24,000 nt of DNA from Saprospiraceae bacterium (GTDB taxonomy: Bacteria; Bacteroidota; Bacteroidia; Chitinophagales; Saprospiraceae): contig JALHQW010000069.1 of NCBI GenBank assembly GCA_022841745.1, positions 8,353 through 32,352 of the forward strand. The letters are read 5' to 3'. Below the pieces are notes generated by a model. It worked only from the letters and a program-made list of their open reading frames with translations, made no database searches and had not been told where the DNA came from. Both the position numbers and the translations under genes were made by a program. This document shows positions 11,317-21,238 of this stretch, piece after piece (the first letter of the stretch is position 1; each line of letters starts with the position of its first letter).

Positions 11317-12681
11317 ATGAAAGCAAGCGCCGAGGCCGTACCAACTCATCACACTACCTCCGGGCACCAGTTTTTCGGTGCTACGCAACAGCCTGGCGCT
11401 GCGTTTTTCAGCCCGGCCACTATCCAGCCCAAGCTGACCATCGGCGCCCCCGACGACCAGTACGAAAAAGAAGCCGACGCCATGGGCGAGCGGGTGGTGC
11501 AGATGTCTTCGATGTTTTCCGCAAGTGGCGGCAACACGCCGGGCATCCAGCGCCAATGCAGCGCCTGTGCCGCCGAGGAGCAGTTGCAAACCAAGCCCGA
11601 CTTGCAAAAAATGGGTGAGGAGGAGGAAGAGGAAATGGTGCAAACCAAGCCTGATATCCAACTGAAATGCGCCGCTTGCGCAGCAGAGGAGGAAGACCAG
11701 GTGCAGATGAAATCCGCAGGTGGCGAGTCCACGGCCAGCCCCGACCTGGCCAGCAAGCTCTCAGCCAAAAGCGGCAGCGGCCAGCCCCTCCCCGCCGATA
11801 CCCAGGCACTGATGGGCCATGCCATCGGTGCGGACTTCTCCGCCGTGCGGGTGCATACGGACAGCGATGCCATCCAAATGAACCGGGAACTGAGCGCCCA
11901 TGCTTTTACACACGGGCGGGATGTGTATTTCAATGCGGGGAAATATGATACAGGCTCAACGGAGGGGAGGAGGTTGCTGGGGCATGAGCTGGGGCATGTG
12001 GTGCAGCAGGGTAATGTTGAAGAAAAAAAACTCCAAATGAAGGTTGAACAAAGCCATGCAAGGTGTTTTAGTTATAACCCTACTTTTCCCATATTTACAG
12101 CCATTGGCACTGACCCTGTAGGTGCCTTAGCTATAATGCAAGCCGCAGATGCAAGGGCTATTGAATTGCTGACGAATACGATTGATGAATTAACATCTTT
12201 ACAAGCTCGAATTCAAGGAGGGGAACCACCCGCTGTGCCAACTTTTTCAGCATGTTTGGCTCAAAGCATGCAAATTAAACTTAGAGTTAACCCTACTGAT
12301 ATAAATTCATGGACTGGAAATGGGCCTAATACGGTCAATAGAATTATCAAAATCTACTCAAATCTTAGAGCGCAATTTCAAGGGGGGTTTGTTAGGTACA
12401 ATTGTTTGGGCAGGGATTGTGAAGATGGTGAAAGAGCGTATGTATACCTAGGACAAGGGTATCTTATAAATTTATGCCGCCCATATTGGAGGGATTTAGG
12501 TGTAGACGACAGGGGCTTGGTTTTGATTCATGAATTAGCTCATCATTACTATGGCACTGAGGATCATGGTTTTACTGGTTTAGGTGCATCCCATTGTCTC
12601 GACCATTTTATTGCAGACACGAATGGACTACCCCATCGAAATCCAGATGCCTGCAAAAATAATTTAATGACAGATTGTTAA
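11317..12681 (+). CDS. DUF4157 (eCIS-associated zincin-like HExxH) protein with a C-terminal aspzincin/M35-like metalloprotease domain; putative eCIS cargo toxin
   Basis: The N-terminal module is FFSPATIQPKLTIGAPDDQYEKEADAMGERVVQM ... ALMGHAIGADFSAVRVHTDSDA...HAFTHGRDVYFNAGKY...LLGHELGHVVQQG, with HELGH at 11983-11997. This is the DUF4157 signature. The C-terminal domain is YNCLGRDCEDGERAYVYLGQGYLINLCRPYW...LVLIHELAHHYYGTEDHGF, with a second HExxH at 12529-12543 and GTxD at 12553-12564. Confidence 0.8.
   Translation: MKASAEAVPTHHTTSGHQFFGATQQPGAAFFSPATIQPKLTIGAPDDQYEKEADAMGERVVQMSSMFSASGGNTPGIQRQCSACAAEEQLQTKPDLQKMGEEEEEEMVQTKPDIQLKCAACAAEEEDQVQMKSAGGESTASPDLASKLSAKSGSGQPLPADTQALMGHAIGADFSAVRVHTDSDAIQMNRELSAHAFTHGRDVYFNAGKYDTGSTEGRRLLGHELGHVVQQGNVEEKKLQMKVEQSHARCFSYNPTFPIFTAIGTDPVGALAIMQAADARAIELLTNTIDELTSLQARIQGGEPPAVPTFSACLAQSMQIKLRVNPTDINSWTGNGPNTVNRIIKIYSNLRAQFQGGFVRYNCLGRDCEDGERAYVYLGQGYLINLCRPYWRDLGVDDRGLVLIHELAHHYYGTEDHGFTGLGASHCLDHFIADTNGLPHRNPDACKNNLMTDC
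11413..12012 (+). repeat. Copy A of a ~600-nt direct repeat (the conserved DUF4157 5' module) shared with 17461-18015
   Basis: Hand alignment of 11413-11472 against 17461-17520 gives 51/60 identical, and all 9 differences are synonymous. Similarity continues by eye to the codons for GHVVQQG and then stops abruptly. Copy A has ~45 extra nt encoding a second CxxC-acidic unit. Confidence 0.85.
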
Positions 12682-12782
12682 CCAATGTGAATCCATTTAT
12701 CAACATAATATCAGCACGCAGGGTATAATTACCCGTATATTTTTATATCCAATGAGCAGCAATCATCTATTTTTCACTCATT

Positions 12783-12824
12783 GCCATCCAACCCAAGCTG
12801 ACCATCGGCGCCCCCGACGACCAG
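12783..12824 (+). pseudogene. Orphan fragment of the DUF4157 5' module (encodes AIQPKLTIGAPDDQ) with no start codon and a stop 9 codons downstream
   Basis: 12786-12824 (atccaacccaagctgaccatcggcgcccccgacgaccag) is 38/39 identical to 11422-11460 of the upstream DUF4157 gene. An in-frame TGA lies upstream at 12753-12755. The reading frame ends ...PHLRTKTP*. Confidence 0.85.
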
Positions 12825-12913
12825 CCCCATCTAAGGACCAAAACACCATGAAACTACCTATAAGATATTAACCAATAAACCCCCTATTTTCATCACCATA
12901 AACCAAAAAAAAA

Positions 12914-19065: not shown

Positions 19066-20060
19066 TGAATACTACTGAATCAAAAACAACCATCTCTCAC
19101 CATCCGCAAACCCGACCAGCAACCCAACCTTTCTTCCAAAAGGATGGAATTGGGACTTTTTTTTCTATACCTCGCCCACAAGCTAAGCCTTTTTTTTCAC
19201 CAATATCACTACCTCAAAAAGACTCCTCGAATAATAGCTTGGAGCAAGGAATGATACAACGCTTTGCAGAAAATGATGAAATCATCAAAGCTATCGAAGG
19301 TGATGCAAAAGCCCCAGACATTCATTTAACTAAAAAAGAAGCAAAAGCAGTAAAAAAATACGGTGAAAGATATGAGGCATTGAAAGTTGAAAGAAGTGAA
19401 GAATTGTCAACTTTGGAAAACGAACGAGCCATTGAAGATTACCTACGTCCTATCATGAAAGATAAATATAGTGGCGAAAGTTGGTGGAAAGTAGAAGCAC
19501 CAAAAAGCAGGGGCACAAATTGGACGGAATTTAAATTTGCAGATGAGCTTTACTTTCAACAATATGACATAGTACATGGTGCAGATTCTTATGAAGAAAT
19601 CATAAAAGAGACCATTGATGAGTACTTTACTCCCGCCAATACAGGTTTTCAACATGCTGATGTTTCTATTGGAACAGAACACAAAGGTGGCCTGATAACC
19701 ATTTCAATAGTTAATGCTTCCTTGGGTAAGGATGAACTTGAAATATTTGCTTGTGATGAAAATGGAACTGTATTGAGAGAAATTTTGCCACCGACCGAAG
19801 GAGGTTTTAATATTAACAAAAAAGGTGAGTCCATTAAGTTTCAAGTTGAAGTGGGCGAAGCATTTGTAAGAATAATATCTTATAGGTCATCTGAAAATTT
19901 GGCAGACAACAGTGCAAAACCCCATGATTTGACTTTTTACAAAGTTGAGTTTGAGAAAAAAATAATTCGAAAGAAACCTATCAGATTTGCTGGAGTTCTC
20001 ACAATTCCAAAGCCAGGGAAAGCTCAAAGGCTTAGAAATGGCAAGTTCATGAAAAATTAA
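19062..20060 (+). CDS. Hypothetical 332-aa protein, translationally coupled to the upstream DUF4157 gene; has a DUF4157-like N-terminal leader but no zincin domain
   Basis: The ATG at 19062 overlaps the upstream TGA (ATGA). The gene is AT-rich like the upstream 3' domain (24/60 GC at 19441-19500). The N-terminus QPFFQKDGIGTFFS...KPFFSPISLPQK parallels QPFFQQAGGGAFFS...HFGPATIQPK of the upstream protein. I recognise no family for the rest. Confidence 0.6.
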   Translation: MMNTTESKTTISHHPQTRPATQPFFQKDGIGTFFSIPRPQAKPFFSPISLPQKDSSNNSLEQGMIQRFAENDEIIKAIEGDAKAPDIHLTKKEAKAVKKYGERYEALKVERSEELSTLENERAIEDYLRPIMKDKYSGESWWKVEAPKSRGTNWTEFKFADELYFQQYDIVHGADSYEEIIKETIDEYFTPANTGFQHADVSIGTEHKGGLITISIVNASLGKDELEIFACDENGTVLREILPPTEGGFNINKKGESIKFQVEVGEAFVRIISYRSSENLADNSAKPHDLTFYKVEFEKKIIRKKPIRFAGVLTIPKPGKAQRLRNGKFMKN

Positions 20061-20095
20061 AATTTGTAATTAAAGCAACGTAATTGTTCTTTAAA

Positions 20096-21238
20096 ATGAA
20101 CCCACTCCTTCAAAAATCCCCCGCCCCCCCTACTTCTACCCAAAGTAGCGCCCCCCCTTTTTTCGGCCCAGCCACCCCGCAAGCGCCAAAGGCACCAACC
20201 CCTGCCAAGGAAGAATGTCCGCCCGCCTCGAAAAGCGAGCCGTTGGCCAAGTTCAATGCCGACCTCGCCAAGGACTTGACGACCGACAAAAAAATGGAAG
20301 GTTATCTTAAGTCTTTGGGTCAAAAACTGGAGGAACTGGCCGTTGGCTCCCTTAAAGACAAAGCGGGCGACCCCAACAGCGCTGGCCAGTTATTGGTCAG
20401 CAAACGGATAGCCGAGGAATTTGAAAAAGCATCGAAGGACATCCTCAAAGACCCTGACTTCCTGTGGGCCAAAAAGCGGTTGATATGCTTCGTGGGCCAC
20501 GATGACCTCACTGCCTTTGCCTCGATATTGACGGGTTTGGCAATCGCTTATTTTGCAGATGTCCCTTTGAAGGGGGAGAAAGAAGTCAAGCTGGCCCCAA
20601 AAGTGGCAGTCGGGGGCGACGTTGACCTCGGCACGGCACAGAAGCCCAAATTCGTGCACGCCATGGGGTTTGCAAAAATTGCTTCGGAGCATTTTTCCCT
20701 AAAAATGGGCGCTGGCTACCGCTCGGAAGATGAAGCCGCCAAACTTTCCACTTTGCCGGACACTGGTACACAAACCTTTCGGGTAAGGGCCGAGGCATTT
20801 GCTACCGACAAGGGCATGCAAATCACCCTTTCGCCAACCCTTGAATTGCACAGGCTTGTGCGGTTGAGCGGAACGGGGGCGTATTCGACGACCGGGGGAT
20901 TCTTTGGAAAGGCCAACCTGCGGCTCGGCACATCCGCAACATTTTTGGATTCCGGTGTTTTTTTTAAGCCCGACGGGGAAATTGTACTCACCGCAGCAAC
21001 AGGTAAAAAATTCGAAATTACAAAAAAGGACAGCTTGGAATGGAAAGGGAAGTTTTCTCGTGACCTCCTTTCTGGTAAAACCTCAGCGGAGGGAAGCCTA
21101 GAATATACCCGGAAAGACAGGTTTTCACTGGCCATAGAAGGGAATTTGAAACTACCCCAACCCACGGCTGGAAGTGGGATTGAAGCCAATTCAATCAATA
21201 TCTTCTTTCGGATGCCATTACCGCTTGGCGGAAAGTGA
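20096..21238 (+). CDS. Hypothetical ~380-aa protein with an 'PPFFGPATPQAPK' leader, one hydrophobic helix and a beta-strand-rich C-terminal half
   Basis: ATG 20096 (MNPLLQKS) is preferred over the ORF-track TTG at 20084. It has one hydrophobic segment, LTAFASILTGLAIAYFADV. The C-terminal half has many alternating-polarity stretches (FSLKMGAGYRS, FRVRAEAFAT, MQITLSPTLELH, ANLRLGTSATF, SLEYTRKDRFSLAIEGNLKL). No family is recognised. Confidence 0.55.
   Translation: MNPLLQKSPAPPTSTQSSAPPFFGPATPQAPKAPTPAKEECPPASKSEPLAKFNADLAKDLTTDKKMEGYLKSLGQKLEELAVGSLKDKAGDPNSAGQLLVSKRIAEEFEKASKDILKDPDFLWAKKRLICFVGHDDLTAFASILTGLAIAYFADVPLKGEKEVKLAPKVAVGGDVDLGTAQKPKFVHAMGFAKIASEHFSLKMGAGYRSEDEAAKLSTLPDTGTQTFRVRAEAFATDKGMQITLSPTLELHRLVRLSGTGAYSTTGGFFGKANLRLGTSATFLDSGVFFKPDGEIVLTAATGKKFEITKKDSLEWKGKFSRDLLSGKTSAEGSLEYTRKDRFSLAIEGNLKLPQPTAGSGIEANSINIFFRMPLPLGGK

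Follow-up and report, generated by a model that had tools for sequence, protein, structure and literature searches.

How extracellular contractile injection systems (eCIS) choose the proteins that they carry is an open question, and one that limits the use of these particles for programmable protein delivery. The question is raised in a specific form by a stretch of 24,000 nucleotides from Saprospiraceae bacterium (NCBI GenBank assembly GCA_022841745.1, contig JALHQW010000069.1, positions 8,353 to 32,352 of the forward strand), hereafter the window, an eCIS locus with Alg11/12-type baseplate proteins, a CIS tape measure, two DUF4157 proteins and an AAA+ ATPase. Four proteins encoded between the tape measure and the ATPase, here called P1 to P4, carry close to their N-terminus a leader with one or more pairs of phenylalanines (FF), although two of them, P3 and P4, are devoid of the DUF4157 domain. 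The original prediction, made from the letters of the window, proposed that this leader is the loading tag of the system and that P3 and P4 are additional cargo. The analysis presented here makes it probable, by analogy with characterized systems, that the FF leader is the loading signal of this eCIS sub-lineage and that P3 and P4 would then be extra cargo.

Four neighbouring proteins share an FF-containing leader

The four peptides on which the prediction was built translate exactly at the positions given for them (P1 F19 to K39, 11371-11433; P2 Q21 to K50, 17392-17481; P3 Q22 to K53, 19125-19220; P4 P24 to K36, counted from the TTG at 20084, 20153-20191), and all of them lie inside the first 53 residues, in agreement with the limit of about 55 originally proposed. 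The shared motif had been written as FF followed by P-x-x-x-Q-x-K. The FF part is present in all four leaders, but the second part is matched literally by P1 and P2 only (PATIQPK), the sequences of P3 (PISLPQK) and P4 (PATPQAPK) being approximate. Moreover, the QPK of P1 and P2 is no free-standing leader element and represents the start of a conserved 'QxKLxIGxPxDxYExEAD' segment located ahead of DUF4157. The run of [ILV]-Q-x-[KQ] units, acidic stretches and CxxC pairs noted earlier in P1 and P2 is present as well, with up to 6 hQxK repeats between leader and DUF4157, though the alignment identifies it as a family-wide trait of DUF4157 N-terminal regions.

A common anatomy emerges from these leaders and their relatives. 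Homologues of the N-terminal half of P2 recurrently read 'MK..(polar/basic)..PFFSK......(P)FFQPKL.IG.P.D.YE.EAD', and the leader as a whole is a hydrophilic stretch of ~35-55 residues with a polar or basic start (MKxxExK...), usually ending in h-Q-x-K/R. Its FF units follow the consensus [QSK]-x-[PS]-F-F-[SGN]-[KP] and are found 1-3 times per leader, mostly 9-12 residues apart, within a composition rich in P, Q, S, T, G and K and without a Sec-type hydrophobic core. The leader is probably disordered, as suggested by AF2 modelling of P4, in which residues 1-30 reach a pLDDT of 45-56 within an otherwise confident model; the AF2 model of P3, obtained from a two-sequence alignment, is poor throughout (pLDDT 49.9) and of no use in this respect. 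In the case of P2, the true start is probably the ATG at 17338 ('MKADAPK'), and the profile alignment of its leader (see below) begins at M3.

The four proteins had been described as otherwise unrelated, which applies to P3 and P4 but not to P1 and P2. The latter share 77% identity across the first ~230 residues and diverge into unrelated C-terminal domains (CTDs); as paralogues they count as one observation, next to which P3 and P4 are independent ones. P1 and P2 are typical representatives of the DUF4157 cargo class of the Cgo1/Cgo2 type. In P1, the Pfam family eCIS_core covers residues 157-233 (11785-12015, 2.4e-29) and Aspzincin_M35 matches the CTD at residues 337-420 (1.2e-09), and HELGH is present in the cores of both proteins, whose CTDs differ. 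P3 and P4 fall outside this family, as had been proposed: eCIS_core was detected in neither of them with Pfam or with a hidden Markov model of the core, and their leaders are followed neither by the 'KLxIG..EAD' segment nor by DUF4157.

The base composition of the region is informative with regard to the origin of the P3 leader. The GC content drops from 0.61 to 0.33 at ~18000, right after the HExxH motif of P2, and remains low (0.33-0.39) until the stop codon of P3, and the P2 toxin domain and P3, leader included, look like one horizontally acquired low-GC cassette joined at the DUF4157 core. Since the P3 leader lies inside this imported module (0.33-0.39, compared to 0.5-0.6), its motif appears to have been maintained across donor lineages and not to have been copied from P1 or P2.

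A leader profile distinguishes cargo candidates from background

Simple patterns are unspecific. The loose regular expression 'FF...hQx[KR]' matches 2% of unrelated N-termini (16/793 non-DUF4157 proteins) and 0.5% of internal windows, a count of two FF pairs within 90 residues matches 18/793 non-DUF4157 N-termini, and both also catch membrane proteins and unrelated open reading frames (ORFs). The sequence rule for finding cargo was therefore too loose as originally written, and FF counts and regular expressions were replaced by a profile whose training set comprised 59 DUF4157 protein leaders, all taken from other genomes and none from the window.

With this profile, the first 110 residues of P1, P2 and P3 score 22.2, 19.5 and 19.4 bits, respectively, and those of P4 8.4 bits (TTG start) or 8.7 bits (ATG start); when the leader is scored alone, the values are 26.3 bits for P1 and 11.8 bits for P4. 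The maximum among the controls was 6.9 bits in 2,449 internal windows of 110 residues and 9.2 bits in 4,630 shuffled N-termini, 3 of which reached 8 bits. The P3 leader is thus clearly significant, and in phmmer, residues 2-49 of P3 align with leaders belonging to large DUF4157 proteins of six other loci (L021, L008, L020, L032, L028 and L038). At the level of sequence, cargo-type proteins carry in the FF leader a genuine N-terminal element that is both conserved and modular.

The leader is a trait of one eCIS sub-lineage

The genomic distribution of the leader was determined in 79 loci gathered via homologues of the N-terminal half of P2, that is, through DUF4157, in which ORFs were called. 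Overall, 50/133 DUF4157 ORFs of these loci score >= 10 bits. Interval counts were made in loci with the tape measure protein (TMP) upstream of the ATPase and a gap between the two. A leader is carried by 31/34 DUF4157 proteins inside the TMP..ATPase intervals versus 2/13 elsewhere (Fisher p = 1.4e-6), and by 6/41 non-DUF4157 ORFs inside versus 0/149 outside (p = 7e-5; 1.4e-3 without the window's own two ORFs). In this sample, gathered through DUF4157, every leader-only protein has a DUF4157 gene nearby.

Two architectures can be distinguished. In the first, the ATPase directly follows the tape measure, cargo is encoded downstream and no FF leader is found (L012, L014, L016, L017, L034, L050 and L068, including Algoriphagus); in the second, to which the window locus belongs, cargo is encoded between tape measure and ATPase and carries FF leaders. 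In a neighbour-joining tree of the ATPase N-domains, FF leaders are present in 23/24 loci of one clade and in 0/12 of the other. As Chitinophagaceae, Flavobacteriaceae and Bacteroidales occur in both clades (Chlorobi and Nitrosomonas being found in the FF clade), the leader is a trait of the eCIS sub-lineage and not of the host.

P4 behaves as a payload domain

A word-indexed homology search with P4 returned P4 itself only, and an exhaustive HMMER search of 1.8 billion representatives yielded 24 relatives. Seven of these stand behind a DUF4157 core (one of them, P0079, being a fragment that starts inside the core), 2 behind the EAD segment only and 3 behind an alternative 'LQxxxGNxxVQR' leader (P0084, P0085 and P0088), while 11 are stand-alone proteins. 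Examples of P4 bodies behind DUF4157 are found in L057, P0066, P0068-71 and P0081; in the clear fusion L057:54-1526, the phmmer match extends over residues 175-469 (E = 1e-24) and a Pfam-confirmed eCIS_core over residues 80-156. Because the same body occurs behind several alternative N-terminal arrangements, it is best understood as a payload domain of the effector type. P4 is also not conserved across eCIS loci, a relative being present in 1/79, and there as the CTD of a DUF4157 protein.

The stand-alone relatives are instructive with respect to the low score of P4 itself. FF is found in the first 45 residues of 8/11 of them, against a background of 0.089 (binomial p = 5e-7), and hQx[KR] in the first 50 residues of 10/11, against a background of 0.145 (p = 4e-8). 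The FF enrichment within the family thereby rescues the marginal leader of P4.

The AF2 model of P4 (pLDDT 73.7) consists of the low-confidence N-terminus, a five-helix bundle (residues 49-153) and an antiparallel beta meander of ~16 strands (residues 157-372). Its resemblance to outer-membrane porins and voltage-dependent anion channels (VDAC) in Foldseek is weak, the porins matching at E ~1e-3 with a TM-score of only 0.25-0.29; P4 has no signal peptide, and the helical bundle precedes the sheet. Judged from this model, P4 could be a membrane-inserting effector.

P3 has a diverged homologue with an invariant FF motif

P3 has no match in Pfam, NCBIfam or PADLOC. Its single homologue, P0064 (41% identity), is encoded immediately downstream of the tape measure in a further eCIS locus, L081. 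The P0064 leader is 33 residues shorter and otherwise diverged, and FFQK and FFS are invariant between the two proteins. The same locus encodes two further FF-leader proteins as well as small membrane/lipoprotein-like, immunity-like genes that lack the leader, and P0064 stands ahead of a DUF4157-Ntox44 toxin that is followed by a membrane protein of its own. L081 yielded no relative of the P2 CTD, a thin test as it involves one homologue locus only. This absence argues against P3 as the immunity protein of P2, a role that we judge unlikely.

Other leader-only proteins and an alternative leader

Outside the window, the leader without DUF4157 is found on two OmpA-family (peptidoglycan-binding) proteins, one from Chitinophaga arvensicola (L049:2520-3878, 13.8 bits) and one from a Prolixibacteraceae metagenome-assembled genome (MAG; L006:5289-6191, 6.4 bits). 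Both are encoded inside eCIS cargo intervals, and in Nostoc a DUF4157 protein has a similar OmpA domain as its CTD (L078:13267-15186).

Another group of proteins combines the FF leader with 'QxKLxIG..EAD' and has no detectable DUF4157 core (L081:5258-7492, L032:7804-8628, L004:15449-16207 and L018:18119-18637). Frameshift or truncation may account for some of these; the 744-aa protein L081:5258-7492 seems intact, with a weak Peptidase_C39-like match.

In many DUF4157 proteins that are annotated as, or were sampled from, other phyla, for example Chloroflexota and Methanoperedens, and of which many are metagenome proteins, the QxKLxIG segment is preceded by the motif 'LQxxxGNxxVQR(L)' (P0022, P0027, P0031-P0046, L027, L031 and L047). 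The motif is also carried by the above-mentioned P0084, P0085 and P0088, where it stands directly ahead of P4-like bodies without DUF4157. It occupies the same position as the FF leader, upstream of 'QxKLxIG..EAD', but is unrelated in sequence and, judged by eye, predicted to be helical. Other eCIS lineages may possess in this motif their equivalent of the FF leader.

Comparison with known loading signals

The premise that eCIS cargo is loaded through its N-terminus in an ATPase-dependent manner is supported directly by experiments on the AlgoCIS system. There, Cgo1 and Cgo2 need their disordered N-terminal domain (NTD) for loading and can dispense with DUF4157 and the CTD, and a loading sequence of NTD plus DUF4157 loads BlaM and Cre (Ericson et al. 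2026, bioRxiv 10.64898/2026.05.27.728243). The same study reports that loading requires the AAA+ ATPase Alg15 together with its Walker B glutamate, that Alg15 is absent from the finished particle and, according to the authors, that there is no conservation of the loading sequence from one system to another (10.64898/2026.05.27.728243). Cgo1 and Cgo2 fill the tube lumen (Xu et al. 2022, PMC8894135).

The window locus resembles AlgoCIS in its homologous Alg11 and Alg12 baseplate proteins and its Alg15-type AAA+ ATPase, and P1 and P2 share with Cgo1 and Cgo2 the succession of disordered NTD, DUF4157 and variable CTD, the CTD of P1 being a predicted metalloprotease as in Cgo1. The two systems differ in gene order, since cargo lies downstream of the adjoining tape measure and ATPase genes in the AlgoCIS type but between them, and with FF leaders, in the window. 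They also differ in the leader itself. In Algoriphagus yeomjeoni (L014), which serves as proxy for the AlgoCIS of A. machipongonensis, the leader reads MGALAERKPLPMPLRNGEGRHTIQPSLKIG, lacks FF and scores -0.5 bits. Finally, no natural cargo without DUF4157 has been described for AlgoCIS, in contrast to the cargo candidates P3 and P4 of the window.

In this latter aspect, P3 and P4 are closer to the cargo of the Photorhabdus virulence cassette (PVC) and the antifeeding prophage (Afp). Pdp1, Pnf and Afp18 carry N-terminal signals and are loaded in a Pvc15/Afp15-dependent manner (Jiang 2022, Kreitz 2023, PMC11495950); these signals are hydrophilic, disordered stretches of ~20-50 residues on cargo without DUF4157, and P3 and P4 share this layout of signal plus payload. 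No conserved sequence was detected among PVC/Afp and eCIS signals (PMC11297309), whereas the FF leader contains a motif that a profile can detect; there is no visible sequence similarity between the two kinds of signal, and both host phylum and eCIS lineage differ.

The eCIS-associated toxins (EATs; Geller 2021, PMC8213781; Danov 2024, PMC11297309) are likewise organized with an N-terminal DUF4157 and a C-terminal toxin, and toxins without DUF4157 are found beside DUF4157 genes. Their 'signal peptide score' comprises N-terminal hydrophilicity, disorder and aromatic residues within the first 8 positions, and these studies explicitly report that no consensus exists (PMC8213781, PMC11297309), whereas the FF units are a positional motif at residues ~17-45 that is limited to one sub-lineage. 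An FF motif is not mentioned in the published AlgoCIS, PVC/Afp and EAT signal work that we found. What is new is that one sub-lineage alone has a leader motif that can be defined, that natural cargo candidates without DUF4157 bear it as well, and that a parallel alternative leader occurs in other lineages.

The FF leader as a candidate loading signal

These comparisons suggest a model in which the leader would be recognised during particle assembly by the loading machinery of the eCIS sub-lineage, with the FF pairs serving as short linear docking motifs. [quoted passage not shown] The leader of P1 and P2 continues into the 'KLxIGxPxDxYExEAD' segment, the repeats, the Zn-peptidase-like DUF4157 core and a variable toxin domain, and in P3 and P4 the leader is joined directly to the payload, P4 representing a putative helical-plus-beta-meander effector that is possibly membrane-active. 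The proposal that the leader is a loading tag and P3 and P4 its cargo gains from a motif that is conserved, modular and confined to the cargo interval; it is weakened by an AlgoCIS-type leader without FF and by an ATPase that does not stand out as receptor.

Several observations weigh against this model. As the validated AlgoCIS-type signal, represented by its proxy, is devoid of FF, the analogy crosses sub-lineages. In addition, the NTD tested in AlgoCIS comprised the whole ~150 residues upstream of DUF4157, within which either the EAD segment or the hQxK repeats, both missing in P3 and P4, could be what is essential. Taken by its own sequence, the P4 leader is marginal (p ~1e-3) and its 'QxK' is degenerate. 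Leader-only proteins are uncommon, with ~6 outside the window, three of which resemble truncated DUF4157 genes, and the locus sample was collected through DUF4157, so that the confinement of the leader to cargo intervals covers DUF4157 neighbourhoods. Finally, a tree of the tape measures yields the same split between FF and non-FF loci as the tree of the ATPase N-domains. Since both trees split alike, the ATPase cannot be singled out as receptor, and a co-variation specific to the ATPase was withdrawn as an argument.

This last point bears on the alternative that survives best, namely that the leader is a loading signal read by a receptor other than the ATPase, such as the inner-tube lumen, the tape measure, the spike/plug or a cap adaptor. 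The equally clean split of the tape-measure tree would fit such a receptor, as would the repeated short aromatic units, which suit multivalent binding along a repetitive tube lumen, and the fact that Alg15 is no part of the finished AlgoCIS particle (10.64898/2026.05.27.728243). However, similarity to the window proteins, a crude measure, separates FF from non-FF loci for the ATPase N-domain (p = 6e-6) but not for the tape measure (p = 0.87) or the Alg12-like protein (p = 0.12), and ATPase-dependent loading has been demonstrated in both AlgoCIS and PVC (10.64898/2026.05.27.728243, PMC11495950). We regard a receptor other than the ATPase as rather unlikely.

Less probable again is that the leader, or its h-Q-x-K ends and repeats, serves as recognition or cleavage site for the HExxH domain of DUF4157 in cis or in trans, for instance in the processing of a pro-peptide, in chaperoning or in the masking of a toxin, instead of acting as loading signal. 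DUF4157, predicted to be a Zn-metallopeptidase, has been speculated by Danov et al. to have a chaperone role in cis or trans (PMC11297309), the hQxK units are repeated up to 6 times ahead of it in P1 and P2 and throughout the family, they recur in the 10/11 stand-alone P4 relatives mentioned above, and a DUF4157 gene lies near every leader-only protein. This co-occurrence, however, carries little weight in a sample biased to DUF4157 neighbourhoods, and a cleavage site would account for hQxK but not for the FF units. Moreover, AlgoCIS cargo lacking DUF4157 is still loaded in a strain without other DUF4157 cargo (10.64898/2026.05.27.728243), and the toxicity of Cgo1 is independent of its HExxH motifs.

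Still more doubtful is the view that the leader is a functionless peptide, inherited as a 5' 'handle' for the recombinational swapping of toxins, with P3 and P4 as decayed or truncated derivatives. The N-terminal halves of P1 and P2 with their 77% identity, their unrelated CTDs and the sharp GC break after HExxH are typical of cassette exchange, and several leader ORFs without DUF4157 resemble truncated DUF4157 genes (L032:7804, L004:15449 and L018:18119). Against a mere handle, the P3 leader differs from those of P1 and P2 in sequence and GC content and shares only the motif with them, and within the leader the FF units alone are invariant between P3 and P0064. Conservation is furthermore seen at the amino-acid level, with P/S before FF, S/G/N after it and a spacing of 9-12 residues, and three unrelated families (P3, P4 and the OmpA-domain proteins) show a stable leader-only architecture.

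Equally doubtful is that the P2 toxin domain has its immunity or chaperone partner in P3, that P4 has a structural or accessory role in the eCIS, and that the FF motifs of both are coincidental: the start of P3 overlaps the stop of P2 (19062-19065) in the same low-GC module, a classic toxin-immunity layout, and P4 adjoins the ATPase with its low profile score, but P3 scores above all ~7,000 controls, its homologue precedes a different toxin in a locus without a P2 CTD relative, and P4 relatives carry leaders far above chance and appear in a single sampled eCIS locus, there as part of a DUF4157 protein.

If the FF leader is the loading signal, cargo with or without DUF4157 could be listed by profile from the genomes of the FF sub-lineage, the number and spacing of the FF units would be a precise mutational target with regard to recognition by the ATPase, and the leader would provide a short tag with which foreign payloads could be brought into particles of the FF type. 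That one payload domain occurs naturally behind four N-terminal arrangements represents in turn a comparative experiment on the requirements of loading. A more far-reaching version, to which we give tentative credence that falls short of the claim for the window itself, is that the whole sub-lineage, found in Bacteroidota, Chlorobi and some Proteobacteria, has in the leader a sequence-defined, transferable loading degron, which the cognate AAA+ unfoldase would recognise through its N-domain. Cargo would then extend beyond DUF4157 toxins to the porin-like beta-meander family of P4, OmpA-domain proteins and the P3 family, the 'LQxxxGNxxVQR' motif would fulfil the same role elsewhere, and eCIS loading would depend on a few lineage-specific linear motifs, contrary to the view that there is no consensus.

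Gene map of the locus and neighbouring genes

The features of the window are compiled in Table 1. The window begins inside the baseplate region, and genes for sheath, tube, spike and terminator would be located upstream of it.

Table 1. Features of the window around the cargo interval, with coordinates in the window and the supporting matches or sequence elements.
Feature	Coordinates	Strand	Details
Alg11/Pvc11/Afp11-type baseplate protein	121..4107	+	PDB sequence matches: All3317 2.8e-118, AlgoCIS baseplate-J protein 7aeb_G 2.7e-105, also Pvc11, Afp11
Alg12/Pvc12/Afp12-type baseplate protein	4206..7355	+	PDB sequence matches: All3315 2.4e-112, Algo12 7aeb_A 3.5e-107, also Pvc12, Afp12
784-aa protein with CarboxypepD_reg domains	7357-9711		'fibre-like' is a name from position only
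CIS tape measure protein (TMP)	9753..11243	+	upstream border of cargo interval; Pfam PF19268 CIS_TMP, E = 2.1e-127, full length
P1	11317-12681	+	DUF4157/eCIS_core and M35-like metalloprotease CTD (Pfam)
P1 leader, aa 1-39	11317..11433	+	FF units 11371-11376, 11404-11409; IQPK 11422-11433
Rest of P1	11434..12681	+	'KLTIGAPDDQYEKEAD' segment, hQxK/acidic/CxxC repeats, DUF4157 core, M35-like metalloprotease CTD
KAP-family NTPase	12914-14995		
S8 subtilase with lamin-tail domain	14979-17141		
P2	17332-19065	+	DUF4157 and CTD without family
P2 leader, aa 1-50	17332..17481	+	FF units 17398-17403, 17425-17430; HFGPATIQPK ends 17481
Rest of P2	17482..19065	+	NTD repeats, DUF4157 core aa 153-230 (17788-18021), eCIS_core 1.6e-30; CTD without family
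P3	19062-20060	+	no family
P3 leader, aa 1-53	19062..19220	+	three FF units F24-25, F33-34, F44-45, then SLPQK
P3 body	19221..20060	+	conserved with P0064 of second eCIS locus L081
P4	20084 (TTG) / 20096 (ATG)-21238	+	no family
P4 leader (from ATG)	20096..20191	+	single PPFFGP unit, then ATPQAPK
P4 body	20192..21238	+	predicted helical bundle, then long antiparallel beta meander
Afp15/Pvc15/Alg15-type AAA+ ATPase	21266..22720	+	downstream border of cargo interval; Pfam AAA PF00004 1.4e-28

The ATPase is encoded right after P4, directly downstream of the island as initially described. Its core is akin to the D2 domain of p97/Cdc48, and the protein has homologues in the ATPases of 35 related eCIS loci. 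The ATPase N-terminus contains a stretch (STFFNSFLHPTPKQ; 21287-21328, aa 8-21) that resembles a leader unit by eye; with a profile score of -3.2 bits it was rejected as such, and the likeness is probably due to chance.

A KAP-family P-loop NTPase and an S8 subtilase (12914-17141) lie between the two DUF4157 cargo genes in a region of lower GC content (0.41-0.48), and the NTPase shows weak matches to QatA, PADLOC PDC-S20 and PifA. The FF leader was not found on either protein with the profile, the subtilase scoring 2.7 bits and the NTPase being absent among the scoring N-termini, and with the leader missing they were not counted as cargo. The region may represent an inserted defence-like or accessory module and not cargo.

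The closest related genomic loci belong to Saprospiraceae MAGs (52% identity), and one other copy of the window DNA was found, on a 10-kb Logan metagenome contig. Downstream of the ATPase, a 256-aa ORF on the + strand (22814-23584) has no family match and is almost wholly overlapped by a fragment of a DUF5916 gene on the - strand (22889-23986); this ORF is unlikely to represent a gene. On the longer contig L001, the product of the DUF5916 gene measures 889 aa.

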